From positions 1-46,108 of the forward strand of contig CAZKHY010000001.1 of assembly GCA_964552455.1 (NCBI GenBank): a DNA stretch of 46,108 nt, read 5' to 3'. The number at the start of each line of letters is the position of its first letter. The first letter of the stretch is position 1. Below the pieces are notes generated by a model. That model saw only the letters and a program-made list of their open reading frames with translations. It searched no databases and was not told the DNA's origin. This DNA comes from an uncultured Nitrospira sp. (GTDB lineage: Bacteria > Nitrospirota > Nitrospiria > Nitrospirales > Nitrospiraceae). Positions 1,700-26,219 of the stretch are shown here, one piece after another. Made by a program: the position numbers and the translations under genes.

Positions 1700-3993
1700 A
1701 ACCAAGAGTGGACATCATCACCAAAGACCTCATCGCGCAGCATAACCTGACCGACGACGAGTACAAGAAGATCGTCGAAATCCTCGGGCGGGAGCCGAAC
1801 CTGACCGAGTTAGGCATGTTCTCGGTCATGTGGTCGGAGCATTGCTCCTACAAGAGCTCGCGGGTGCATCTGAAACGGCTCCCGACGACGGGGCCACGTG
1901 TCGTCCAAGGCCCCGGCGAAAATGCCGGTGCGGTGGACATCGGGGACGGTCTGGCGGCGGTCTTCAAGATGGAGTCCCACAACCATCCCTCTTTCATCGA
2001 GCCCTATCAAGGGGCGGCCACCGGCGTGGGGGGCATCTTGCGGGACATCTTCACGATGGGGGCCAGGCCGATTGCGCTCCTGGACTCGCTCCGGTTCGGG
2101 TTGCTGGATCGGCCCTTGAATCGCCACTTGTTCAAAGGCGTCGTGGCCGGCATCGCCGGCTACGGCAACTGCATGGGCGTGCCGACGGTCGGCGGTGAGG
2201 CGGTTTTCAACGACATCTACTCGCAGAACCCGCTTGTGAACGTCTTTTGCCTGGGGATCGCGAAGAAGGACAAACTGTTCAAAGGGCTGGCGGCCGGGGT
2301 CGGCAACCCGGTCATCTATGTCGGTTCCAAGACGGGCCGGGACGGCATTCACGGGGCCACGATGGCCTCGGACTCCTTCGATGAGGCTTCCGAAGCCAAG
2401 CGGCCGACCGTGCAAGTGGGCGATCCCTTCACTGAGAAACTGTTGCTGGAAGCTTGCTTGGAACTGATGGCCGGCGATCTGCTGGTCGGCATCCAGGACA
2501 TGGGGGCGGCGGGGTTGACCAGCTCGTCCTGCGAGATGGCCTCACGCGCCGGCAACGGCGTCGAGCTGGACCTGACTCATGTGCCGCGGCGTGAGCCCCA
2601 CATGACGCCCTACGAGCTGATGCTCTCGGAGTCGCAAGAGCGGATGCTCATGATCGCCAAGGAGGGGCGTGAGGAAGAGGTCCTGAAGATTTGCCGGAAG
2701 TGGGACTTGTCCGCGGCGGTAGTGGGGCGGGTGACGAGCGACGGGATCTTGCGCGTGAAGGACAACGGCAAGGTTGTGGCCGAGATTCCGGCCAAGGCGC
2801 TGGCGGAGGACGGCCCGCGCTACGAGCGGCCCAGCGCGCCACCCGCCTATCAGGACATGCTCCAGTCCCTCAACATGGACGTGCTGCCGGACGTGAAGGA
2901 TGCCACGGCGGTGCTCCATTCGCTGCTCGAATCGCCCACGATCGCGAGCAAAGCCTGGGTCTATCAACAGTATGACCATATGGTGCGCACCAACACGCTG
3001 GTCCGGCCCGGATCGGATGCGGCCGTGGTCCGGATCAAAGGGACGAACAAGGCCCTGGCGCTGACCACGGACTGTAACGGGCGCTACTGCGTGCTGAATC
3101 CCTACGTCGGCGCGACGATCGCGGTGGCCGAGGCTGCGCGGAATCTGGTTTGCTCCGGGGCCGAGCCGATCGGGCTCACGGACTGTCTGAATTTCGGCAA
3201 TCCCGAGCGGCCCGACATCATGTGGCAGTTTATTCTTTCGATCGAGGGGATCAAAGATGCCTGTGAGGCCTTCAACGTGCCGGTGGTCAGCGGCAACGTG
3301 AGCTTTTACAACGAGACCAACGGGCTCTCGATCTATCCCACGCCGATCCTGGGCATGGTCGGCTTGATCGAGCCGGCTGATCGGGCCATGACCCAATGGT
3401 TCAAGCAGGCGGGCGATGAGATCATTCTGCTGGGCAACACGAAGGAGGATTTGGGAGGGACCGAGTATCTGCGGGTGGTCCATCACAGGGAACAGGGCAG
3501 CCCGCCTGTGCTGAGTCTGGAAACTGAGAAAGCGCTCCACCACTGTGTGCTCGCGTTGATCCGGGAAGGCTTGGTCCAGTCGGCCCATGACTGCTCGGAC
3601 GGAGGCCTGGCTGTGGCCCTGGCCGAATGTTGTGTGGCTCATCCGGTAAGTTCATATTGGGAGGGAGGGGCGCGAAACGCGCCCCTCCCACACCCACCGC
3701 TCGGGGCTGTGGTAAGATTGACTGCGGGCCAACTGCGTCTGGATGCGCTGCTGTTCGGGGAGAGCCAGTCGCGTGTGGTCCTGTCGGTCAGCCCGGCCCA
3801 TCGCGAGACGGTGCTGCGCAAGGCCGGAGCGATGGGGGTTCCGGCGGCGGCGATCGGGACCGTGGGCGGCGAGCGGCTGGTGATCGACGTCGAGGCCGGC
3901 AAGCAGGCTGGTGCCTGCCGGATCGACGCGGATTTGAAGACCTTGCATGAGAGCTGGAGCAAGAGCCTGGAGCGGGCTCTTCAACAACAATGA
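1696..3993 (+). CDS. purL: Phosphoribosylformylglycinamidine synthase subunit PurL
   Basis: Contains [22 protein letters not shown] and other FGAM synthase II motifs. GTG 1696 overlaps the hepT stop (GTGA). The track ORF start at 1615 is a run-on into hepT; GTG 1708 is an alternative start. Confidence 0.9.
3663..3689. repeat. Perfect 12-bp GC hairpin inside purL (GGGAGGGGCGCG-AAA-CGCGCCCCTCCC)
   Basis: Read directly from the sequence. It lies in a ~60-nt segment (3640-3699, [20 protein letters not shown]) that interrupts the conserved ALAE...LGAxVxL region of PurL. Confidence 0.8.
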
Positions 3994-4062
3994 TGAATGC
4001 AGAATGCTGAACGCTGAATTGAAGAGGCTCCGCATTCATCATTCATCACTCATCATTCAGCA
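3991..4062. repeat. Heptamer-array hairpin element (family A: TGNTGAA arm / TTCANCA arm)
   Basis: Reads tgatgaa tgcagaa tgctgaa cgctgaa ttgaaga ggctccg cattcat cattcat cactcat cattcag ca. It spans exactly from the purL TGA to the purF ATG. Confidence 0.85.
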
Positions 4063-5469: not shown

Positions 5470-5549
5470 TCCGCCTCCGTTCGTTCTGTCTGTGCATCAT
5501 TGCTGTTGCCCCCGATTTTTTCGCCGTGCTAGGATAGTCGCATTAACAG

Positions 5550-5644
5550 TGCTGAATTGTGAGTGCTGAGTGATGAATGGAAGCACATGGAGGGACCGGG
5601 CCTCGCTCAATCAGCATTCATCACTCATCGTTCAGCATTTATGA
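5550..5644. repeat. Heptamer-array hairpin element (family A, second copy)
   Basis: Left arm is tgctgaa ttgtgag tgctgag tgatgaa; right arm is atcagca ttcatca ctcatcg ttcagca tttatga. 5615-5637 matches 4040-4062 at 22 of 23 nt. Confidence 0.85.
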
Positions 5645-7941: not shown

Positions 7942-8387
7942 GCGGGCAGGAGGCCGTCACCCAGGCATGGGACTCAGCCCGCATCCTGCTGCGTCAGCGC
8001 GAGCCGGGACTCTACGAGCTGGAGCCGGGCGGAGCCTTGGCTCTTGACCTGGGCGACGAGGGCTGGCTGCTGGAGATCACCCCCGATGGGCGCCTGATCT
8101 GCCAGAACGGGATGGCCATGGACGACATCAAGAGCCTCCTGTCCGACGGCACGGCGGAGGACCTGGGTACGGATGAGCTGGCGAAGCAAGCCAAATACTA
8201 TCTGCAGCCCGCCGTCGCCAAGGTCAGGAAGGTGTTTCTCGGGGCCGGGTTCGAGGAGGCGACCGAGATGAATGATGCCTATGTGGCGGTGACGTTTCAA
8301 CGGGCGGTTGATCTCGGCAAGCCGGACGAAATCGTCCGGGCGATCCGTTGGTGCCGCCAGCAGGTTGGTGCGAAGCTGACAAGCTGA
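7938..8387 (+). CDS. Hypothetical protein (149 aa)
   Basis: ATG 7938 overlaps the TPR gene stop (ATGA). No family was recognised. Confidence 0.5.
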   Translation: MSGQEAVTQAWDSARILLRQREPGLYELEPGGALALDLGDEGWLLEITPDGRLICQNGMAMDDIKSLLSDGTAEDLGTDELAKQAKYYLQPAVAKVRKVFLGAGFEEATEMNDAYVAVTFQRAVDLGKPDEIVRAIRWCRQQVGAKLTS

Positions 8388-8466
8388 CAAGCATGAAAGC
8401 TGACGAGGGGGATGCCTGTTTCGTGATCTCTGCTATTGGTCAGCTTGGTTCCTTGTCAGCTTGACG
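8372..8466. repeat. Octamer-array inverted repeat (AAGCTGAC arm / GTCAGCTT arm)
   Basis: Left arm is aagctgac aagctgac aagcatga aagctgac; right arm is gtcagctt ggttcctt gtcagctt. The left arm starts inside the last codons of the 7938..8387 CDS. Confidence 0.8.
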
Positions 8467-13503: not shown

Positions 13504-13514
13504 GGCCACACAAA

Positions 13515-13737
13515 AGAGCTGTCCCGGGCGAAGGGAAGAGGGTGCCAATCCCTCGCGGTCCCGCCGCTGTGATGGGGACGAAACCCGCAGAAGCCACTGT
13601 CTGGTGGCGTGGTTCGTGAAGCGCAAGGGCTCCTCTTGTAGACGTTTCACGAACGACGCTTCACGCTTCACGTGAAAGATGGGAAGGCGCGGGGAGTAGA
13701 CGACGAGCCCCTAAGCCAGAAGACCTGCCCGGACAAT
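13515..13737 (+). promoter_or_regulatory. Cobalamin (B12) riboswitch 1
   Basis: Core elements are GGGAAGAGGGTGCCAATCC, CGGTCCCGCCGCTGT, GAAGCCACTG, GGGAAGGCGCGG and the B12 box AAGCCAGAAGACCTGCCC. It lies upstream of a corrinoid ABC importer. Confidence 0.85.
13603..13679. repeat. Heptamer-array hairpin (family B: TGAAGCG / CTTCACG) inside the riboswitch 1 variable extension
   Basis: Reads ggtggcg tggttcg tgaagcg ... tttcacg aacgacg cttcacg cttcacg. The same sequence blocks occur at 17092-17172. Confidence 0.8.
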
Positions 13738-13790
13738 GACCGTCTTTCCCTCGTGGGCTGGGGAAAGGGTGAGGGTGAAGAAGCGGGTGC

Positions 13791-13829
13791 AATCCTCAGG
13801 GTCTCACAGGCCTTGAGGATTTTTTGTTT
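13791..13829 (+). terminator. Riboswitch 1 expression platform: intrinsic terminator
   Basis: Stem AATCCTCAGG...CCTTGAGGAT is followed by TTTTTGTTT. The 3' arm contains GAGGA, the likely btuF RBS. Confidence 0.6.
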
Positions 13830-14835
13830 GAGCCGTTACGGTCGAGCGCGCGGGACACAACTGAAGCTCGGTTGGCTGTGCCTCATCATGGCGTTGCTCA
13901 CGACCGGGCTTGCCCAGGCGGCCGAGGCGGACCAGACCTCCATGAAAAAAAGACGGCAACAAGGCATCCTGACCGGGATGCCGTTCATGGCCAACCTGGC
14001 TCCCCGCACGTTTGTCGACGACCTCGGCCGCAAGATTTACCTGGCGAAGCCGCCCGCTCGCATTGTGTCCCTCGCGCCCAGCGTGACCGAGATGCTCTTC
14101 GCGATCGGCCTCGACCAGGAGATCGTGGGCGTGACGCCCTATTGCGACTATCCCCCCGAGGCCCGCTCCAAGCCGAAAGTCGGCTACGCGAATCCGAACA
14201 TCGAGTCGATCGTTGCCTTGCAGCCCGATCTCATCCTGGCGCCACGGGAATTCATCCGCGCCGATCTCCTGGGCAAGCTGGAGCAGTTAAAGATTCCGAC
14301 GTTTCTGCTGGATGCCAAGACCATCGATGACATCCCCTCCCATATCCAGACCATCGGCCGCATGCTCGAGCGCACCGCTGCGGCTGACCGGGTGGCCCTG
14401 GATCTCAGGCGGCAGATCGCGGAGGTCAGGCGCAAGGTGAACGCGCTGCCCCGCCCCCGCCTGCTCTACGTCCTGAACAGTCAGCCCCTGATCACCGTCG
14501 GCCCCGGCAGCTTCCTTCATCACATGATCGAGCTGGCCGGCGGGGCCAACGTGGCGGCCCGCGCCTCCTCGGCCTATCCGCGTTTGAGCATGGAGGAAGT
14601 GCTCAAGGAGGACCCGGAGATCATCGTGTTTCCCGTCGGCCAGGCGGAGGGGCTGTCCGAAAGCGAACAGCAGCTTTGGCGCCGGTGGACGATGCTGTCG
14701 GCCGTCAAGCAGGGACGGTTCCACCGAATCGCCGCCGATCTCCTGAACCGTCCCGGTCCCAGGATCACCCAGGGGCTGGAATCCCTCGCCAGGATTCTCC
14801 ATCCGGAAGTGTTCGACGGGAGAGTGACGCCCTGA
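13828..14835 (+). CDS. btuF: Periplasmic corrinoid-binding protein of ABC importer (BtuF-like)
   Basis: Shows the PBP type 8 pattern (IVSLAPSVTEMLFAIGL, GVT.YCDYP). TTG 13828 lies 8 nt after GAGGA and gives a signal peptide (LSRYGRARGTQLKLGWLCLIMALLTTGLAQA). The start is uncertain; ATG 13888 is an alternative. Confidence 0.75.
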   Translation: MSRYGRARGTQLKLGWLCLIMALLTTGLAQAAEADQTSMKKRRQQGILTGMPFMANLAPRTFVDDLGRKIYLAKPPARIVSLAPSVTEMLFAIGLDQEIVGVTPYCDYPPEARSKPKVGYANPNIESIVALQPDLILAPREFIRADLLGKLEQLKIPTFLLDAKTIDDIPSHIQTIGRMLERTAAADRVALDLRRQIAEVRRKVNALPRPRLLYVLNSQPLITVGPGSFLHHMIELAGGANVAARASSAYPRLSMEEVLKEDPEIIVFPVGQAEGLSESEQQLWRRWTMLSAVKQGRFHRIAADLLNRPGPRITQGLESLARILHPEVFDGRVTP

Positions 14836-15992
14836 TGCCCATCACGGTCGGAGAAACCGGCGCCCGTCGCGGCGCCGGCGAAAACGCGGTTCCTGTTGCG
14901 GGCCGGCCGCAGTCCGTCAGGGGGCAACCCTTGGCCGGGATCAAACAGGCGCGGCTCTCGCCCACGCGATGGATGGGCACCCTGTCGGTCCTTGGCGCAG
15001 CCAGTCTCCTGGTGTCGGTCGTCTGTCTGCGGTTCGGAGCGGAGGAGGTCGGATTCATCCAAGCGGTTCAGATCCTGTTCGAGGCCCTCAGGCATGGCCA
15101 ATCCGGGATCGAGTCGGCCGGACCGGCCGGCATCATCCTGATGCAGGTGCGGCTGCCCCGCGTCCTGCTGGCCTTCATGGTGGGCGCGTGCCTGGCGTCG
15201 GTCGGCGTCGGGCTCCAGGCCCTGCTCAGGAACCCCCTGGCCGATCCCTACGTCCTCGGCGTCTCCAGCGGGGCCGCCTTGGGGGCCGGCGTGGCGATTC
15301 TCTTGGGGATCGGGAGCACGATCCTGGCCGTCTCGGCGCTGCCGCTCTGCGCAATGGTCGGCGGGCTCCTGTCGGTGCTCGTCTTGTACCGCATCGCCGC
15401 CTCCTACGGGTACCTGCCCGTGCACACCCTCCTGCTGGCCGGGGTGATCCTCAACGCCGTCTTCGCGGCGCTGGTCATGTTCATCACGTCGATTCTGGAG
15501 CCCAACCGGTCTTTCGGGATGATGGCCTGGCTGATGGGCACCCTGGCGGCGCCGGACTACCCGGCCTTGCTGGTCCTGGCCTGCTACCTGCTCGTGGGCA
15601 CCGTGATCCTGTTCCACCAGGCTCCGTCGCTGAACCTGCTGACGCTGGGGGAAGAAGCCGCGCGGTCCCTCGGCGTCGAGGTGGAGGCCGTCAAGAAGAC
15701 CGTGTTCTTCACCTCCGCCCTGCTGACCGGAGCGGTCGTCTCGGCCAGCGGCATGATCGGGTTCATCGGCATGGTCATCCCGCACGCGATCCGGATGACC
15801 ACCGGCGCCGATCATCGGCTGCTGTTTCCGGCCTCGGCACTGGTGGGCGGCATGTTTCTGATGGCGGCCGATACGGTGGCGCGCACGCTCCTGGCGCCGG
15901 GGGAAATCCCCGTCGGGGTGGTGACGGCGCTGGCCGGAGGGCCCGTTTTCGTCTATCTGCTGATGGCCCGAAGGGGCGGACTGGCTGCATGA
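14835..15992 (+). CDS. btuC: FecCD-family corrinoid ABC permease (BtuC-like)
   Basis: Has multiple TM helices and the motif GMIGFIGMVIPHAIR. The ATG overlaps the btuF stop (TGATG). Confidence 0.85.
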   Translation: MPITVGETGARRGAGENAVPVAGRPQSVRGQPLAGIKQARLSPTRWMGTLSVLGAASLLVSVVCLRFGAEEVGFIQAVQILFEALRHGQSGIESAGPAGIILMQVRLPRVLLAFMVGACLASVGVGLQALLRNPLADPYVLGVSSGAALGAGVAILLGIGSTILAVSALPLCAMVGGLLSVLVLYRIAASYGYLPVHTLLLAGVILNAVFAALVMFITSILEPNRSFGMMAWLMGTLAAPDYPALLVLACYLLVGTVILFHQAPSLNLLTLGEEAARSLGVEVEAVKKTVFFTSALLTGAVVSASGMIGFIGMVIPHAIRMTTGADHRLLFPASALVGGMFLMAADTVARTLLAPGEIPVGVVTALAGGPVFVYLLMARRGGLAA

Positions 15993-16870
15993 GCAACGGA
16001 CGTTCCGGGATCGCATCCGCCGAGCGGCCTGCCTATCGGGTAGAGCGGCTCCGCTTCAGTTATCGAAAAGAGCGGGGCGTCCCTGCGAGGCAGAAGAGCG
16101 AAAAAGACGGATGGGTGCTCAAGGGGGTGACCTTCGAGGTCAGGGCCGGCGAGATTGTCGGGGTGATCGGGCCCAACGGGTCCGGCAAAACGTCATTGCT
16201 CAAGCTGTTGGCCCGCATCCTGCACCCGCACGAAGGGACGGTCGCCCTCTTCGGACGCGCGATGGCCGACCTGCCACAGGCGGAAGTGGCCAGGACGGTC
16301 GCGCTGGTGCCGCAAGAAAGCCCCCAGGTCTTTCCCTTCACGATCACGGAAATGGTTCTGATGGGCCGATTCCCCCACCACCAGATCGCGGGAGGCCTGG
16401 GCGGGTTCGGATGGGAGGGGCCGGAGGACATCCGCCTGGCGGAAGAAGCGATGCGGGACACGGACGTCATGCACTTGGCGGATCGGTTGATCAGCGACGT
16501 GTCCGGCGGCGAGCGCCAGCGGGCGATCATCGCCCGGGCGCTGACCCAGCAGCCGCGCGTCCTGTTGCTGGATGAGCCGACAGCCTTCCTGGATCTCCAT
16601 CATCAACTGGACATCTGCCGCATCCTGCGCCGCCTGAACGAGGAGCGGGGCTTGACGGTCGTGCTCGTGTCCCATGATCTGAACCTGGCCAGCCAGTACT
16701 GCGACCGGCTGCTGTTGTTGAGCGAAGGGCTGGTCCATCGGATGGGGCCGCCGGCCGACGTCATTCGACCCGAGGTGCTGGAAGCCGTGTATCGATGCCA
16801 GGTGCTGGTGGATCACCATCCAACGTCCGGGCTGCCACGGATCACGTTGCCGGGGCGTGTCATGACGTGA
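15989..16870 (+). CDS. btuD: ABC transporter ATP-binding protein (BtuD/FepC-like)
   Basis: Contains Walker A (GPNGSGKTS), the signature VSGGERQR and Walker B (LLLDEP). The ATG overlaps the btuC stop (ATGA). Confidence 0.9.
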   Translation: MSNGRSGIASAERPAYRVERLRFSYRKERGVPARQKSEKDGWVLKGVTFEVRAGEIVGVIGPNGSGKTSLLKLLARILHPHEGTVALFGRAMADLPQAEVARTVALVPQESPQVFPFTITEMVLMGRFPHHQIAGGLGGFGWEGPEDIRLAEEAMRDTDVMHLADRLISDVSGGERQRAIIARALTQQPRVLLLDEPTAFLDLHHQLDICRILRRLNEERGLTVVLVSHDLNLASQYCDRLLLLSEGLVHRMGPPADVIRPEVLEAVYRCQVLVDHHPTSGLPRITLPGRVMT

Positions 16871-16912
16871 AAGGTGAAACGTGAACGGTAAAACGTAAAG
16901 CGAGAAAGCGGG
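16864..16912. repeat. One-armed heptamer array (NNNGTRA x6) beginning at the btuD stop codon
   Basis: Reads gacgtga aaggtga aacgtga acggtaa aacgtaa agcgaga aagcggg. Confidence 0.75.
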
Positions 16913-16955
16913 CGACGAGAGGAGGAGGTCGCACCCCTCCTTCTGTTGTGCTGTC

Positions 16956-16984
16956 TTGCAAAGACAGGTGCGGTAACCATTAAT
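16956..16984 (+). promoter_or_regulatory. Possible sigma-70-like promoter for riboswitch 2/btuB
   Basis: TTGCAA, a 17-nt spacer, then ATTAAT. The -35 lies within a small hairpin (CTGTCTTgcaAAGACAG). Confidence 0.3.
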
Positions 16985-16999
16985 CGGGAGGGACTGTTA

Positions 17000-17232
17000 G
17001 AGAAAGGGACGACGGAACGGGGAAGATGGTGCAACTCCATCACGGTGCCGCCACTGTAAGCGGGGAGTGATCCTGCAGGAAGCCACTGGCCGGTGGCGTG
17101 GTTCGTGAAGCGTATCTCGTGAAGCGCAAGAGTTTTTGCCGGCGTTTCACGAACGACGCTTCACGCTTCACGCGAAAGCTGGGAAGGCGCGGGAGAGCGA
17201 CGATCCGCAAGTCAGGAAACCCGGCTGTCGAT
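17000..17232 (+). promoter_or_regulatory. Cobalamin (B12) riboswitch 2
   Basis: Core elements are GGGGAAGATGGTGCAACTCC, CGGTGCCGCCACTGT, GAAGCCACTGG, GGGAAGGCGCGG and the B12 box AAGTCAGGAAACCCGGC. A possible RBS-sequestering hairpin (CCCTTCgagcGAAAGGG) sits before the btuB ATG. Confidence 0.85.
17092..17172. repeat. Heptamer-array hairpin (family B) inside the riboswitch 2 variable extension
   Basis: Reads ggtggcg tggttcg tgaagcg tatctcg tgaagcg ... tttcacg aacgacg cttcacg cttcacg. It has one extra 14-nt unit compared with riboswitch 1. Confidence 0.8.
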
Positions 17233-17271
17233 CCAATTCACTGAACCCTTCGAGCGAAAGGGAAGGTGGGC

Positions 17272-19218
17272 ATGCAGCGGATCGTCATTGGGCTGGGAGT
17301 TTTGTTCGTGCTGATGTGGGGCATTGGGGTCAGTCGCGCTGACGAAGACGTGCCGGTTGTGCAGACGGAAGAAGTGGTGACCAGCGCCACGAAGACGCCT
17401 GTGCCGGTGAGTCATTTGACGAGCGCCGTGGAGGTGATCACCGGGGAGGAGATGCAGCGGCAGAAGTACAAGATGGTCGTGGACGCCCTGCGCCAGGCCC
17501 AGGGGCTGGCGGTCTTCTCCAGCGGCGGGCCTGGGACTTCGGCGACCGTCCGGATGCGGGGCGCGAACGACAATCAGACGCTCGTGCTCATCGACGGCGC
17601 GATCGTCAACAGCGCGACACTGGGCAGCTATGATTTTGCGAACCTGACGACCGACAATATCGAGCGGATCGAGATCCTCCGCGGCGCCCAGAGCATGTTG
17701 TGGGGGGCGGATGCCATGGGCGGGGTCATCAACATCATCACCAAAAGGGGAACCGGGGCACCTTCCGCGAACGCCTTCTTCGAATACGGCTCCTTCAACT
17801 CCATCCGCGAGGGGGGACAGGTGGCCGGGAAGAAGGGGCCGGTAGACTATTCCATGACCCTGTCGCGGTGGGATTTCACCGGTTTCTCCACGGCCGACTA
17901 CAGGCTGGGCGCCTCGGAACGGGACGCATTCAGGAACTGGCAGGCCTCGTCTCGTCTGGGAGTGGAGCTGCCCAAAGACGGGCGGCTGGAGTTCAATTTT
18001 CGCTGGATGAACGGCTCGACCGAGCTGGATAATATCTCGAACCCGCCGCAAGACGTGTTCGCGTCCAAGCAAAAGAGCCGGCAGTTCGTGTTCAGCGGCA
18101 ACTACGAGCAACCCATTACGAAATGGTGGTCCCAGAAGCTCACGCTCGCCCGCGCGCAGGAGGCTTCCCTCTTTCTGCCCGGCACCCTGCAGCGCAACCT
18201 CTTCACGGGGGCGACGAGCGTGCCGTCCGGCTCGCCCAACGAGACCCGGGTGCTCTCCAACCGGCTCGAGTGGCAACACAACCTGCAGGTCGCGGAGCCG
18301 TTGCTGCTGACGATGGGTTATCAGTTCCGGGAGCAGCAGGGGGAGAACGACACGGGTCTGACCAACAGGATCGTCTCCTCGAACGCCGGCTTTGCCCAGG
18401 CCCAGGTGAATCTCTGGGACCGGGTCTTCGGCACCGCGGGCATCAGGCAGGACAGCTACAACGTGTTCGGCGACGCGACCACCTACCGGGCGACCGGCGG
18501 GTACCTCCACAAAGAAACGGACACGAAGTTTCGGACGAGTTATGCGACCGGGTTCCGGGCGCCGACGATCAACCAGTTGTTCTTTCCCAACTTCGGCAAC
18601 CCCAATCTCGGGCCGGAGAAGAGCCAAAGCTTCGACGCGGGGGTGGATCAAGAGTTGTTCGGCAAACGGCTCAAGTTGAGCGGCGGGTATTTCTGGAACC
18701 GGTATCGCAACCTCATCGTCACCACGTTCGATCCCGTGGCCTGCGCGTCGCTCAGCACGTTCGGCTTCTGCCCGATCAATATCGGCAACGCCTCGACCAA
18801 GGGGTGGGAAGCCGGCTTCACCTATGCCCAGACCACGAACTATCCGCTCCTCAAGGCGTTCGACATTCATGGCCAGTACACCAATACGTTGACGAGAGAC
18901 CTGAACAACGGGAGCCGGTTGCCGCGCTGGCCGGTGGATCAGTGGAGCACCGTGCTCGGATACCAGCCGGTCGACCCGGTCCGCATCACGCTCACCGGCC
19001 GTTTCGTGGGGTCGCGGTTCAATACCACCGGGGACCGGCAGAGCATCAAGGGGTTCAACGTGTGGAACCTCACGGCGACCTATGACGCGACCAAGCGGGT
19101 CCAGGCCTATGTCCGCGTGGACAACCTGTTCGATCAGAAATACGAAGAGATTCTCAACGCCGGGACCCCGGTGCGATCGATTTATTTCGGGATGCGAGTC
19201 AACTACGATGCCGCGTGA
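17272..19218 (+). CDS. btuB: TonB-dependent outer-membrane corrinoid receptor (BtuB-like)
   Basis: Has a signal peptide, a TonB-box/plug region (EEVVTSATKTPV, VEVITGEEM, IEILRGAQS.LWG) and a beta-barrel length. It follows a B12 riboswitch. ATG 17272 lies after GGAAGG. Confidence 0.85.
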   Translation: MQRIVIGLGVLFVLMWGIGVSRADEDVPVVQTEEVVTSATKTPVPVSHLTSAVEVITGEEMQRQKYKMVVDALRQAQGLAVFSSGGPGTSATVRMRGANDNQTLVLIDGAIVNSATLGSYDFANLTTDNIERIEILRGAQSMLWGADAMGGVINIITKRGTGAPSANAFFEYGSFNSIREGGQVAGKKGPVDYSMTLSRWDFTGFSTADYRLGASERDAFRNWQASSRLGVELPKDGRLEFNFRWMNGSTELDNISNPPQDVFASKQKSRQFVFSGNYEQPITKWWSQKLTLARAQEASLFLPGTLQRNLFTGATSVPSGSPNETRVLSNRLEWQHNLQVAEPLLLTMGYQFREQQGENDTGLTNRIVSSNAGFAQAQVNLWDRVFGTAGIRQDSYNVFGDATTYRATGGYLHKETDTKFRTSYATGFRAPTINQLFFPNFGNPNLGPEKSQSFDAGVDQELFGKRLKLSGGYFWNRYRNLIVTTFDPVACASLSTFGFCPINIGNASTKGWEAGFTYAQTTNYPLLKAFDIHGQYTNTLTRDLNNGSRLPRWPVDQWSTVLGYQPVDPVRITLTGRFVGSRFNTTGDRQSIKGFNVWNLTATYDATKRVQAYVRVDNLFDQKYEEILNAGTPVRSIYFGMRVNYDAA

Positions 19219-19231
19219 GATCAGGTCCGTC

Positions 19232-20683
19232 ATGGCCCCGCCGCGGCTCGTGATCGCCGGCACGTCCAGCGGGGTCGGCAAGACCACGGTCACCCTGGCG
19301 CTTCTGGCCGCCTTGAAGGCACGGGGGCGAAGGGTCCAGTCGTTCAAGGCGGGGCCGGATTACATCGATCCCGGACACCATGCGATGGCGACCGGCCGGC
19401 CGTCCCGTAACCTGGACGGCTGGATGCTGGGGCCGGCCAGGAACCGGGAGATTTTCTTTCGCGCCGCGGCCGATGCGGACCTTTCGATCGTCGAGGGGAT
19501 GATGGGACTCTTCGACGGGAGTGCTCCGACCAGCGAAGTCGGCAGCACGGCCGAACTGGCCAAACAGCTCAAGGCCCCCGTGCTGCTCGTCATCGACGGG
19601 AGCGCCATGGCCCGCTCGGCTGCGGCCATGGCCTCGGGCTACGCCCGGTTCGATCCGGCGCTCAACGTCGCCGGGGTCCTGTTCAACCGGGTCGGCAGCG
19701 AGGGCCACTATCGGTTGCTCAAGGAAGCGGTGGAGGCCGATACTGACCTGGCCGTGGTCGGGTATCTCCGTCCCGATGCGGAACTGACAATCGGGGATCG
19801 CCACCTTGGCCTGGTGACGGCGATCGAACAAGGGGCGAGCGATCTCTATCGGAAACTGGGACAGGCGGCAGCCGAGACGGTTGATCTGGACCGGATCGAA
19901 GCGCTGGCCCGGTCGGCGGCAGAGGACGTGAACGGTGAAAAGTTGGACGTGAAAGGCGGGCAAATGCAGGCGGGAACTAGTTTCGGTTCCCCTGCCGTTC
20001 ATGTCTCACCGCTTACGTCTCACGAGCGGGTTCGGGTCGGCATCGCCTACGATGCCGCGTTTTGTTTTTACTATCCCGACAATCTTGAACTGTTGGAAGC
20101 GGCAGGGGGCGAACTGGTCAGGTTTTCTCCCGTGAGGGACGGGGTGTTGCCCGAGGTGGATTTGCTCTATCTGGGCGGGGGGTACCCGGAGCTATACGGC
20201 GAAGCGCTGGACCGGAATCAATCCATGAGGAGGTCGATCCGGACCTTTGCAGACAGAGGGGGCACGATCTATGCCGAATGCGGCGGCATGATGTACTTGA
20301 CGCAAGCCATACGGGACTTCGAAGGCCGCACCCATCAGATGGTCGGACTGTTTCCGGCCGAGGCCGTCATGCGCAAGCCGGGCCTGACGCTGGGGTACAG
20401 GGAAATCGAGATCACAAAACCATGCCCCCTGGGAACGTCCGGGATCAAGGCCCGCGGCCACGAGTTCCATTATTCGTCGCTGACGCCCACCGGGCCGCTC
20501 GAATACGTCTGTTCGGTCACGGACGCCAAAGGGACGATGCGGTCGCCGGATGGCCTGGTGAAAGGCAACTGCGTCGCCCTCTATGCCCACCTTCATTTCG
20601 GAAGCCAGCCCGACCTTGCGCGCGCGCTGGTGGCCGCCGCCCGCGCCGGCCGTGAACGGGCGGCAGCCGGCGGCACGACATGA
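19232..20683 (+). CDS. cbiA: Cobyrinate a,c-diamide synthase
   Basis: Contains the P-loop AGTSSGVGKTT, KAGPDYIDP and the GATase part (YAECGGMMYL, HEFHYS). ATG 19208 is an alternative start. Confidence 0.9.
   Translation: MAPPRLVIAGTSSGVGKTTVTLALLAALKARGRRVQSFKAGPDYIDPGHHAMATGRPSRNLDGWMLGPARNREIFFRAAADADLSIVEGMMGLFDGSAPTSEVGSTAELAKQLKAPVLLVIDGSAMARSAAAMASGYARFDPALNVAGVLFNRVGSEGHYRLLKEAVEADTDLAVVGYLRPDAELTIGDRHLGLVTAIEQGASDLYRKLGQAAAETVDLDRIEALARSAAEDVNGEKLDVKGGQMQAGTSFGSPAVHVSPLTSHERVRVGIAYDAAFCFYYPDNLELLEAAGGELVRFSPVRDGVLPEVDLLYLGGGYPELYGEALDRNQSMRRSIRTFADRGGTIYAECGGMMYLTQAIRDFEGRTHQMVGLFPAEAVMRKPGLTLGYREIEITKPCPLGTSGIKARGHEFHYSSLTPTGPLEYVCSVTDAKGTMRSPDGLVKGNCVALYAHLHFGSQPDLARALVAAARAGRERAAAGGTT
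19925..20022. repeat. 14-heptamer imperfect palindrome embedded in frame in the cbiA interdomain linker
   Basis: Reads gacgtga acggtga aaagttg gacgtga aaggcgg gcaaatg caggcgg gaactag tttcggt tcccctg ccgttca tgtctca ccgctta cgtctca. It encodes DVNGEKLDVKGGQMQAGTSFGSPAVHVSPLTSH. Confidence 0.8.
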
Positions 20684-22240: not shown

Positions 22241-22825
22241 ATGCGGATCACCAAGGTCTATACACGGACGGGGGACCAGGGAAAAACGAGGCTTGCCGGC
22301 GGACAGCAAGTTTGGAAAGACAGCCTGCGCGTGGAAACCTACGGGACCGTGGATGAGGTGAACGCGTTGGTGGGTCTGGTGCGGGTCTTCAATGGGGACC
22401 AGGCGGAATCAGAGGCCCGGGAACGACTGGAGCAAAGCCTCCGCTGGGTCCAGAACAAGCTGTTCGACGTGGGGGGAATCCTGGCGACGGCGCCGGGACA
22501 GAAATTCAAAAATATGCCCCGGGTGACCGGCAAGGACGTGACCAACCTGGAACGGCTGATCGATGCCTGCCAGAAGGACCTGGCGCCCCTCAAGGAATTC
22601 ATCCTGCCCGGCGGAGGCAAGGTCTCCGGTCTTCTCCACCATGCAAGGACCGTCTGCCGGAGGGCCGAGCGGACCTGCGTCAAGCTGGCCCGGGAGGAGC
22701 CGGTGGATCCGGCCATCGTGAAATTTCTGAACCGCCTCAGCGACGCACTCTTCGTGTTGGCCCGCTGGGCCGGAAAGATGAACGGAGAGGCGGAATTTCT
22801 CTGGGAGCGGGACGTGAAATCGTGA
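22241..22825 (+). CDS. pduO: ATP:cob(I)alamin adenosyltransferase, PduO type
   Basis: The N-terminus is MRITKVYTRTGDQGKT, followed by FILPGG...HHARTVCRRAER. Confidence 0.85.
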   Translation: MRITKVYTRTGDQGKTRLAGGQQVWKDSLRVETYGTVDEVNALVGLVRVFNGDQAESEARERLEQSLRWVQNKLFDVGGILATAPGQKFKNMPRVTGKDVTNLERLIDACQKDLAPLKEFILPGGGKVSGLLHHARTVCRRAERTCVKLAREEPVDPAIVKFLNRLSDALFVLARWAGKMNGEAEFLWERDVKS

Positions 22826-22886
22826 AGCGCACCTCGTGAAGCGTCTCTCGCGGAATGGTTCGGACCTTCACGAACGACGGACGACG
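22816..22886. repeat. Heptamer-array element (family B) spanning the pduO stop and the cobQ 5' region
   Basis: Left arm is gaaatcg tgaagcg cacctcg tgaagcg tctctcg; right arm is cttcacg aacgacg gacgacg. Confidence 0.75.
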
Positions 22887-22908
22887 AAGGGTGGCAGCGA
22901 AAACTCTC

Positions 22909-25076: not shown

Positions 25077-26132
25077 ATGAACCTGCAACACACGATAGGG
25101 GCCATCGAACCCGCGGACCGCACCTGTCTGAAACGCGCCCAAGCCCGCTTGGACCGGCTGACCAAGCCCGTCGGAAGCCTGGGACGGCTGGAAGAATTGG
25201 CGGCCCGGTATGTGGCGATGACCAGGGAGGAGCGACCGAAGGTGCCCCGCGCCGCGATCTTCACCTTCGCAGCCGATCACGGCGTGACGAGCGAAGGGGT
25301 CAGCGCCTATCCCAGCGCCGTGACGCCTCAGATGGTCCTGAATTTTCTGCGGGGCGGGGCGGCCGTCAACGTCCTGGCTTCCCACGTGGGCGCCGAGGTC
25401 CGCGTGGTGGATATCGGGGTGGCCCACGAGTTCGGCCCCTTGCCCAATCTGATCGCCAGAAAAGTGGCGCATGGAACGAACAATTTCTCCCAAAGGCCGG
25501 CCCTGAGTCGCGCCGACGCCGTCAAGGCGCTCGAGGTGGGGATCGAGCTGGCTTCTGAAGCGGTGCAGGGCGGCATTGGCCTGATCGGGACCGGGGACAT
25601 GGGCATCGGCAATACGACGCCGAGCGCCGCCATCACGGCGGTGATGACGGGGCAGCCGGTGGCGGCCGTGACTGGTCGCGGCACGGGGATCGACGAGGAA
25701 GGCTACCTCCGGAAGGTGGCGGTGATCGAAAGGGCGCTGGCGGCGCATCGTCCTGACCCCGGCGATCCCATCGACGTGCTGGCGAAGGTCGGCGGGCTGG
25801 AGATTGCCGGTCTGGCCGGGGTGATCCTGGGGGCTGCCGCCCGTCGGGTCCCCGTCGTCTTGGACGGCTTCATCGCCGGCGCGGCCGCGCTGGTCGCCGC
25901 CGGGCTTCAACCCCGTTGCTGTGACTACCTGATTGCATCCCATCGGTCGGTCGAACGGGGCCATCAGGCGGCCTTGGATCGGCTGGGGCTCAAGCCGTTG
26001 CTCGACTTGGACCTGCGGCTCGGCGAGGGAACCGGGGCTTGCCTGGGGATCAGCTTGGTCCAGGCCGGCATCAAGATCCTGACCCAGATGGCGACTTTCG
26101 ATGAAGCCGGGGTCTCCGAGCGTGACACGTGA
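25077..26132 (+). CDS. cobT: Nicotinate-nucleotide--dimethylbenzimidazole phosphoribosyltransferase
   Basis: Contains LTKP.GSLGRLE, GDMGIGNTT and LRLGEGTGA. Confidence 0.9.
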   Translation: MNLQHTIGAIEPADRTCLKRAQARLDRLTKPVGSLGRLEELAARYVAMTREERPKVPRAAIFTFAADHGVTSEGVSAYPSAVTPQMVLNFLRGGAAVNVLASHVGAEVRVVDIGVAHEFGPLPNLIARKVAHGTNNFSQRPALSRADAVKALEVGIELASEAVQGGIGLIGTGDMGIGNTTPSAAITAVMTGQPVAAVTGRGTGIDEEGYLRKVAVIERALAAHRPDPGDPIDVLAKVGGLEIAGLAGVILGAAARRVPVVLDGFIAGAAALVAAGLQPRCCDYLIASHRSVERGHQAALDRLGLKPLLDLDLRLGEGTGACLGISLVQAGIKILTQMATFDEAGVSERDT

Positions 26133-26219
26133 GAGGTGAAAAGGAAGTCGTGAAAGGTGAAGCGACCGGTACTGAAACGGAACTTGTGCGTCCTCTAGCT
26201 TGCGGTTCACGTTCCTTCC
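26129..26219. repeat. Heptamer-array hairpin (GTGAARN arm / TTCACGT TCCTTCC arm) at the cobT-cobS junction
   Basis: Left arm is gtgagag gtgaaaa ggaagtc gtgaaag gtgaagc; right arm is ttcacgt tccttcc. Confidence 0.75.

Follow-up and report, generated by a model that had tools for sequence, protein, structure and literature searches.

The window analysed here is contig C1 of a metagenome-assembled genome (MAG) of an uncultured Nitrospira sp., a stretch of 46,108 nt within an assembly of 3.47 Mb with 62.5% G+C and 268 contigs. It contains two cobalamin riboswitches, RS1 and RS2, each of which carries a long hairpin of tandem heptamers in the tip of a peripheral helix (Table 1). In a covariance search with cmscan, both score above the RF00174 gathering threshold of 31.5 bits and align over the full length of the model. 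Both also occupy the leader position ahead of genes for cobalamin transport or metabolism: RS1 is followed by genes with Peripla_BP_2, FecCD and ABC_tran domains, RS2 by genes with Plug, TonB_dep_Rec and CobQ domains (Pfam). Judged by covariance model and gene context, RS1 and RS2 are full-length class-I-type cobalamin riboswitches. They share with the class I, adenosylcobalamin (AdoCbl)-type members of RF00174 the full-model match, the motifs GCCACUG and GGGAAGGC, the B12 box and the location in leaders of B12-transport genes. They differ in the size of the terminal extension hairpin, which is ~10–15 nt in class I and 81–92 nt here, and in the tandem-heptamer composition of the tip, which has probably been exchanged between the two paralogous riboswitches.

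Throughout, the tip is the stretch between GCCACUG and GGGAAGGC; G000 is this genome, other G numbers are genomes of relatives and L numbers are single loci of relatives. Every relative found with the BtuF-like protein as query belongs to Nitrospiraceae or Nitrospira. The terminal hairpin closed by GCCACUG and GGGAAGGC is presumably the tip of the P6 (P7–P11) extension. Class I riboswitches are organised around a four-way junction of P3–P6, and their P7–P11 extension folds back on the core (PMC7367189).

Table 1. Position of the riboswitches, their tips and the intervening genes in the window, and of the PF05635 genes on other contigs of the same genome
Feature	Position	Strand	Basis or remark
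RS1, cobalamin riboswitch, leader of btuF/C/D-like ABC importer	13509–13746	+	RF00174, 88.1 bits, model 1–189
RS1 tip 5′ arm, two units (CGTGGTT, CGTGAAG)	13603–13623	+	21 nt identical to 17092–17112
RS1 tip loop, with CTCCTCT at 13630–13636	13624–13642	+	equals RS2 loop at 10/19 positions only
RS1 tip 3′ arm, four units, the last ones partnerless (predicted small side hairpin)	13643–13672	+	30 nt identical to 17143–17172
btuF-like (to 14835), btuC-like (14835–15992) and btuD-like (15989–16870) genes, between RS1 and RS2	13828–16870	+	PF01497, PF01032, PF00005
RS2, cobalamin riboswitch, leader of TonB-dependent receptor (17266–19218) and cobQ	16978–17242	+	RF00174, 97.1 bits, model 1–189
RS2 tip 5′ arm, four units (CGTGGTT, CGTGAAG, CGTATCT, CGTGAAG)	17092–17126	+	sequence; inverted repeat I4, direct repeat D11
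RS2 tip loop CAAGAGTTTTTGCCGG	17127–17142	+	sequence
RS2 tip 3′ arm, four units	17143–17172	+	I4: 32 nt, 78% complementary; fold
PF05635 gene	C136:4321–4638
PF05635 gene	C5:34289–34603
PF05635 gene	C36:16535–16852
PF05635 gene	C3:2135–2458
PF05635 gene	C129:86–361
PF05635 gene	C111:2888–3187

The two tips are built from the same blocks. RS1 reads GCCACTG (13593–13599), TCT, a 21-nt arm GGTGGCGTGGTTCGTGAAGCG, a 19-nt loop, a 30-nt arm CGTTTCACGAACGACGCTTCACGCTTCACG, TGAAAGAT and GGGAAGGC (13681–13688). RS2 reads GCCACTG (17082–17088), GCC, the same 21 nt followed by the additional TATCTCGTGAAGCG (17113–17126), a 16-nt loop, the same 30 nt, CGAAAGCT and GGGAAGGC (17181–17188). An earlier note on this DNA had described a heptamer array in both riboswitches with exact 21-nt and 30-nt blocks and 14 nt more in RS2, all of which can be read in the sequence. 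Both arms keep a strict 7-nt register with CG at each seventh base, the units of the 3′ arm being CGTTTCA, CGAACGA, CGCTTCA and CGCTTCA in both riboswitches, and Tandem Repeats Finder (TRF) reports period 7 at 13656–13672 and 17156–17173. The 14 nt absent from RS1 make up exactly one copy of a direct repeat, TCGTGAAGCG(TATC)TCGTGAAGCG, in which TCGTGAAGCG is 10 nt long. In the covariance alignment, 72 extra letters in RS1 and 85 in RS2 form an insertion in the terminal hairpin loop, outside the core helices, which bears out the placement in the variable P6-extension tip that the note had proposed. The ordinary small terminal hairpin is thereby replaced by a hairpin of 81 nt in RS1 and 92 nt in RS2.

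Folded alone, the RS2 tip forms a single predicted rod (~33 bp; −51 to −56 kcal/mol, z = −3.4) that is interrupted by two small internal loops and closes through the helix expected from the consensus. The RS1 tip, with two plus four units and therefore two 5′ units fewer, is predicted to form a shorter rod and a side hairpin of the unpaired 3′ units. Facing words in the RS2 rod can mismatch as a whole, as for CGTATCT opposite AACGACG. The closing pairs are lineage-specific, TCT/AGA in RS1 and GCC/GC in RS2. As a separate observation, the tip start GGUGGC is complementary to the GCCAC of GCCACUG three bases upstream (13593–13608; 17082–17097). In an unconstrained fold of a short RS1 segment the GGUGGC/GCCAC hairpin is preferred, and this predicted pairing would mask the conserved motif.

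Two identical blocks in neighbouring riboswitches, one 14-nt unit apart in length, could be what is left of a recent duplication of the whole riboswitch followed by slippage, and the earlier note had offered recent paralogy as one of two explanations. We give this practically no credence. Cobalamin riboswitches are present in all 40 relatives searched, most of which have the pair at a distance of 3.4–3.8 kb, and the relatives with the pair come from this family and from three others of the same order. In a tree of RS1 and RS2 from 37 genomes, built from the aptamer cores after the tips had been trimmed off, the sequences fall into two deep, reciprocally monophyletic clades, one holding every RS1 and the other every RS2. 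In G000 the cores are 68% identical overall and 78–84% at aligned positions, whereas the arms agree at 51/51 positions; the loops agree at 10/19. Judging from their sequences, RS1 and RS2 are old paralogues. The claim of recent paralogy is thus refuted, and the expectation that the arrays are more alike than the aptamer cores holds.

A second trivial origin of the identity would be the assembly itself, with a repeat collapsed or copied between similar loci of a MAG. The genome is in 268 contigs, and the strongest parallel cases are MAGs as well. The identical blocks of 21 and 30 nt are, however, shorter than assembler words, they have distinct flanks, different loops and a 14-nt indel, and they lie on a single contig. 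The pattern recurs independently in at least five other assemblies, and in the complete genomes G012, G142 and that of N. moscoviensis, both sites carry heptamer tips as well. An artefact is therefore highly improbable. An exact scan of metagenome contigs with the 30-mer for strain variants gave no match.

We consider it probable that short-tract copying limited to the tip explains the tip identity, that it went from RS2 to RS1 in this genome, and that the copied module belongs to a dispersed class of heptamer hairpins. Tips were surveyed in RS1 of 80 Nitrospiraceae species and in RS1/RS2 pairs of ~50 genomes. For the 16 genomes in which both tips are long, the mean identity between the RS1 and RS2 tips of the same genome is 0.66, compared with 0.55 ± 0.017 for permuted pairs, and none of 20,000 permutations reaches 0.66; the 16 genomes are related to each other, so that the resulting P value is optimistic. 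The highest own-pair tip identities are found in G022 (0.95, loops included, with cores of 62%), G141 (0.87), G015 (0.84), G091 (0.82), this genome (0.74) and G011 (0.72, with 3′ arms identical at 28/29 positions). Core identity across these pairs is 0.61–0.68. The two tips of G015 differ by exactly one 7-nt unit, so that the variation in unit number anticipated by the earlier note is seen both as 14 nt here and as 7 nt there. Within one genus, the RS2 tip of G141 has RS1-like loop and 3′ segments and that of G091 has not, with RS2 cores that are 96% identical. Closeness across the two classes also occurs between genomes, as for RS2 of G015 and RS1 of G023 (tip 0.85, core 0.59). The best non-riboswitch match of the G015 tip is at most 77% identical, compared with 91% to the tip of the partner riboswitch. 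The excess of own-pair identity and the lack of a closer non-riboswitch match argue for direct exchange between RS1 and RS2 and against independent draws from a dispersed pool.

The direction of copying in this genome follows from the relatives. The arms of RS2 in G000 match those of RS2 in G142 at 33/34 and 30/31 positions (63/65), and the RS2 arms of G006 and G008 are clearly homologous to them, the whole RS2 tip of G006 being 81% identical. The RS2 loop of G000 is unrelated to the loops of the orthologous tips in G142, G006 and G008. RS2 is the likely donor, given that orthologues of its arms are found in RS2 of other genera. Judged by BtuF, the congener G001 (L074) is closest, followed by L077 and L081, and the RS1 tips of these relatives are of the GTGAC type. 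The motif CTC[CT]TCT is found in seven of 67 long tips, namely RS1 of G000, L074, L077, L081, RS1 and RS2 of G015 and RS1 of G023. Outside RS1 of G000 it is confined to GTGAC-type tips, and the RS2 tip of G015 is itself an RS1-type copy. By a rough estimate, the chance of such a 7-mer within a 19-nt loop is ~0.002. The RS1 tip of G000 thus appears to be a mosaic, since its arms are RS2-like and the older RS1 loop motif CTCCTCT and the closing pairs are retained. In this scenario, the RS2 arms would have overwritten both RS1 arms, and part of the older GTGAC-type loop would have stayed. The 14-nt difference is a loss or gain of one two-heptamer repeat copy; the 14 nt missing from RS1 may have been deleted later by slippage between the 10-nt direct repeats or skipped by a register shift during copying.

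Several points weigh against tip-limited copying in its simple form. The highest tip identities are all found in draft MAGs. The contrast between loops (10/19) and arms (51/51) in G000 is not explained by a single conversion tract. It needs two tracts, a strong constraint on the arms or rewriting of the arms only, and it is here that the simple model is weakest. In addition, homologous tips of different genomes are conserved like the cores (0.82 for both), and for G000 and G142 the arms are 97% identical compared with 79% for the cores. Tip conservation that matches or exceeds that of the cores speaks for a function or for active homogenisation rather than for tolerated ballast.

As for the route, we propose that replication could stall or break at the hairpin, with the similar hairpin at a distance of 3.4 kb then serving as the source for repair, either through non-allelic gene conversion or through template switching at the hairpin. 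The shared flanks GAAGCCACTG and GGGAAGGCGCGGG and the periodic words may serve as microhomology, and slippage by whole heptamers would give rise to differences in unit number.

Across Nitrospiraceae, tip length is bimodal, with ordinary small hairpins of 25–49 nt, long tips of 90–125 nt and few intermediates; about half of the RS1 and RS2 tips are long. Nearly all long tips are hairpins with ~four heptamers per arm and a loop of 15–30 nt. The word family varies by genome and includes CGTGAAN and other CGT-phased words, GTGAC/GTGAT-NN, TCAGCNN/GCTGANN, CGTTAAN and others. The consensus fold of nine GTGAC-type tips consists of four 5-bp blocks with 7-nt spacing and 2 × 2 internal loops between them, and includes a few compensatory changes of C-G to U-A. 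The transcribed strand folds better than its complement in 45 of 67 long tips (Wilcoxon p = 4e-4), a value that is indicative only, as the sequences are related, and G-U pairs number 214 in the sense strand compared with 152 in the complement of these 67 tips. The cultured N. moscoviensis NSP M-1 (riboswitches at 1712598–1712873 and 1716015–1716263 of NZ_CP011801.1) and one N. lenta genome have GTGAY-type tips with four plus four units at both riboswitches. The word types of RS1 and RS2 differ in G001, G016, G017 and G142.

The long or short state of RS1, scored on the BtuF tree of 61 species, requires at least 14 changes, compared with 20.6 for shuffled labels (minimum 15). Even near-identical BtuF proteins can go with a differing tip state, as for L130 (long) and L134 (short). 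Because about half of the riboswitches are short-tipped and very close relatives differ in this state, the family as a whole can do without the rod. Retained rods are about as conserved as the core, and wholesale replacement occurs, often with the paralogue as the source. In N. moscoviensis, N. lenta and G000, long tips are limited to the btu pair: the remaining cobalamin riboswitches of these genomes are 124–201 nt in total, which is too short for a long tip, and in the other two of G000 the tips, read directly, measure 25–27 nt.

The arms themselves are unique in this genome. Within the 3.47-Mb assembly, neither the 21-mer nor the 30-mer is found outside the two riboswitch sites, and a third copy of the arms is lacking, the best match beyond the riboswitches being 26 nt with one mismatch. 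Their architecture, in turn, is common. G000 contains 362 tandem arrays of period 7, with AAGCGTG as the commonest unit (28 arrays), and CGTGAAGCG occurs 201 times, compared with ~40 expected from base composition. At least 123 arrays have a complementary array within 130 nt. These 123 hairpins have a median total length of 81 nt and arms of 27–29 nt, 113 are intergenic by gene calls made with a codon log-odds caller, and they start a median of 9 nt past the upstream stop codon. Their arms are drawn from a small vocabulary (CGTGAAG, CGTATCT, CGTCGTT, others and their complements), and arm mismatches are often swaps of whole words. Riboswitch tips thus belong to a Nitrospiraceae-wide class of ~80-nt hairpins with heptamer arms of ~28 nt, which agrees with the assignment of the array to a repeat family in the earlier note.

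Word repertoires change rapidly. Arrays of GTGAY ×3 number one in G000, 98 in the congener G001, 105 in G015 and 268 in G023, and GTGAY-type riboswitch tips are confined to GTGAY-rich genomes. CGTGAAN ×2 is found 45 times in G000, 57 times in G142 and 76 times in G008. The ~100-fold difference between the congeners G000 and G001 implies that word families rise and fall genome-wide over short times. Hairpin orientation relative to transcription is random (37:40), and on this ground we rejected the idea that the arrays serve to provide stops in every frame, the stop-rich arm having no preferred direction. For the genome-wide hairpins we find no difference in energy between sense and antisense (47:39, p = 0.42), which speaks against RNA-level selection on them; among the hairpins compared, the riboswitch tips alone show such a difference.

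Given this dispersed class, RS1 and RS2 could each have received one mobile heptamer-hairpin element in the same permissive loop, the second explanation of the earlier note. In size and architecture the tips match the dispersed hairpins, and they use the commonest word of the genome; the bimodal tip length and the repeated changes of state on the BtuF tree also speak for insertions. Against two insertions stand the missing third copy of the arms and the inheritance of the RS2 tip within the RS2 lineage, which suggests that the RS1 tip is nested among RS2-lineage tips. In addition, the closing pairs remain lineage-specific, no target-site duplication is seen as a direct repeat flanking the tips, a consistent Y1/RAYT transposase is lacking, and the other two cobalamin riboswitches of G000 have kept small tips. 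We regard two independent insertions as very unlikely; copying of the RS1 arms from RS2 accounts better for the pair than the twofold colonisation once proposed. What stands of the idea of a mobile or slippage-prone module inside a functional RNA is the repeat module in a permissive loop, and what falls is its arrival by recent duplication or by two insertions.

Tandem heptamers are among the closest known repeats. Heptamer simple repeats are over-represented in bacteria, with inverted pairs of (GGGANTN)n in Xanthomonas for which polymerase slippage was proposed (Rehm et al. 2015, PMC4692102), and TAACTGA repeats are described in Beggiatoaceae (PMC4679880). The arrays studied here resemble the heptamers of Xanthomonas, of Beggiatoaceae and of the cyanobacterial STRR type in their tandem 7-nt units, in often convergent arrays capable of stem-loop formation, in their intergenic location and in a unit number that varies between relatives. 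In contrast to the Xanthomonas and STRR-type repeats, many word families coexist per genome here, the arms have a fixed size of ~four units, they are not G-rich and they occur inside an aptamer. The two riboswitch copies thus have the complementary 7-nt arrays of that type and depart from its intergenic location.

REP/REPIN elements are likewise dispersed, intergenic hairpin doublets of 60–110 nt in genome-specific families. They differ in having a single conserved REP sequence, which is replaced by tandem heptamers here. A REPIN/RAYT system was rejected as a candidate: PF01797 gives only a partial hit of 30.6 bits in G000 and none in G006, G012, G016 and G022, four genomes with heptamer tips or arrays of their own. 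A MITE (a transposable element of miniature size with inverted repeats) was rejected as well, given that no direct repeat flanks the tips and that other matches to the arms do not exceed 26 nt. In the pneumococcal trp leader, a BOX element lies between two T-box riboswitches and is co-transcribed with regulation retained (Croucher et al. 2011, PMC3049150). That element stands between two aptamers and not within an aptamer helix, and no exchange between paralogues is described for it. An incomplete literature search yielded no account of heptamer repeats in Nitrospira, nor, there or elsewhere, of repeats located in the helix of a riboswitch or of tips exchanged by paralogous riboswitches. Two things are new here: concerted evolution, recurrent and confined to the tip, of two ancient riboswitches, and the tie to heptamer hairpins of the type found with intervening sequences (IVS) and PF05635 genes.

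This tie emerges from genes of the family PF05635 (23S_rRNA_IVP), which are present with 1–12 copies each in 18/18 Nitrospiraceae genomes compared with 1/14 control genomes. All six PF05635 genes of G000 (Table 1) are bracketed by inverted heptamer arrays, each with a word family of its own. Heptamer bracketing is also found in most PF05635 cassettes inspected elsewhere in Nitrospiraceae (L190–L219), and there as in G000 the arrays stand right behind the upstream stop. The cassette arms of G012 and G008 share words with the G000 tips (CGTGAAG, CGTATCT ... CGAGATA, CGCTTCA, CGAACGA). Upstream of a ybgC-like gene lies an orthologous cassette whose arms are CGT-phased in G008 and G012 and of the GCTGATGG type in G006 and G010.

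In 23S rRNA, an IVS puts an extended stem-loop in the place of the small tetraloop in helix 9, 25 or 45, may carry an S23p open reading frame (ORF) and is cut out by RNase III; in Coxiella its stem has 28 bp with terminal inverted repeats (PMC4990558). The riboswitch tip is alike in that a small hairpin loop at the end of a helix is replaced by a rod with arms of ~28 nt. This exchange of a terminal loop for a long stem-loop, typical of an IVS, is found here with arms of 21–35 nt, compared with a median of 27–29 nt genome-wide. The similar heptamer arms that bracket PF05635 genes, with the same words in G012 and G008, add to the likeness. The differences are that the host RNA is a riboswitch and that the tip loops of 16–19 nt contain no ORF. 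No heptamer-armed IVS was found in the seven 23S genes of Nitrospiraceae examined, four of which are 3007 nt long. Among the other three, the 23S genes of G023 (L225) and G002 (L226) exceed the usual 3007 nt by ~740 and ~970 nt at one site ~2040 nt into the gene. By eye this extra DNA contains a long open coding stretch, which suggests an intron with a homing-endonuclease gene and not a heptamer IVS. The 23S gene of G008 (L224) is 274 nt longer.

By analogy, then, the riboswitch rod may be linked to IVS elements, without membership among them. In the fullest version of such a link, the heptamer hairpins would be gene-less cassettes of IVS type, their full form carrying a PF05635/Avd-like four-helix-bundle gene, that settle in hairpin tips of structured RNAs or DNA and have their arms rewritten in place by a templated, genome-specific process; cleavage by a double-strand RNase would leave a functional aptamer in two pieces, as in fragmented 23S rRNA. 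It would explain why sites keep a hairpin yet change its words, why the RS1 arms were replaced and the loop was kept, and why the repertoires of congeners differ. We nevertheless judge this version quite unlikely.

The same genes suggest a candidate for a selective force that is compatible with tip-limited copying. A single sequence-specific factor, either a protein such as the PF05635 four-helix-bundle protein or an RNA, might read both tips; selection would then favour copying, and the rod would be a second regulatory input or a processing site. Such a factor would fit arms that lack compensatory drift between G000 and G142 (63/65) next to unrelated loops, and homologous tips as conserved as the cores. 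The tips also follow genome-specific word repertoires, as the GTGAY counts illustrate, PF05635 genes with heptamer-array flanks occur in 18/18 genomes searched, and long tips are limited to the btu pair in N. moscoviensis, N. lenta and G000. On the other side, RS1 and RS2 have different word types in the four genomes named above, the rod is dispensable given the many short-tipped riboswitches even among very close relatives, and the genome-wide hairpins have neither a strand bias (37:40) nor a difference between sense and antisense energy. The factor itself is hypothetical. We regard this extension as unlikely overall.

The rod should leave ligand binding intact. By analogy with published class-I structures, it would stack on the terminal helix and point away from the ligand pocket, so that binding would be preserved. 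The rod is presumably tolerated and possibly acts as a folding clamp or as a substrate of a double-strand RNase, for which it is a candidate site. During transcription, a strong local hairpin may bring GCCACUG and GGGAAGGC together, and the rod may delay completion of the aptamer by ~80–90 nt.

We conclude that the solvent-exposed helix tip of a large riboswitch can keep a dispersed repeat hairpin of 80–100 nt over long evolutionary times. Probably it is the module and not the aptamer that moves between paralogous riboswitches 3.4 kb apart, as short-tract concerted evolution inside functional RNAs. Bacterial heptamer repeats, long unexplained, are thereby tied to a site with a known RNA form and direction of transcription, and also, by the likeness set out above, to the IVS/PF05635 elements of ribosomal RNA. 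With long tips at both riboswitches, the cultured Nitrospira moscoviensis makes processing, binding and regulation directly testable. For riboswitch engineering, the tip offers a naturally permissive insertion site.

Further repeats are found in the window. A one-armed array of ~six CGTGAAA-type heptamers (16865–16907) lies right behind the btuD-like stop without a complementary partner nearby; by eye, its complementarity to the RS2 3′ arm is ~70%. On its 3′ side follows a purine/pyrimidine hairpin GAGAGGAGGAGG...CCCCTCCTTCTG (16912–16946) that resembles the CCCTCCC-type tips of G016, G021 and G032. Within the cobQ frame, a heptamer-armed hairpin GACGTGAACGGTGAAAAG...CCGTTCATGTCTCACCGCTTACGTC (19926–20020) would be translated; its site is the linker between the CbiA domain (aa 6–185) and the GATase_3 domain (aa 268–459). 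More repeat-armed hairpins lie in spacers of co-directional genes at 3989–4062, 5548–5640, 8373–8463 (with 8-nt units), 22820–22888 and 26127–26211, and the segment 22820–22843 (TCGTGAAGCGCACCTCGTGAAGCG) shares 92% identity with positions 17103–17126 in the 5′ arm of RS2. Finally, some RS1 copies have a second variable insertion of 80–110 nt, non-heptameric, between GGGAAGGCGCGGGGAGTAG and the B12 box. It is found in G008, G014, G015 and G022 (L042, L049, L050, L058), whose RS1 riboswitches reach a length of 320–350 nt.

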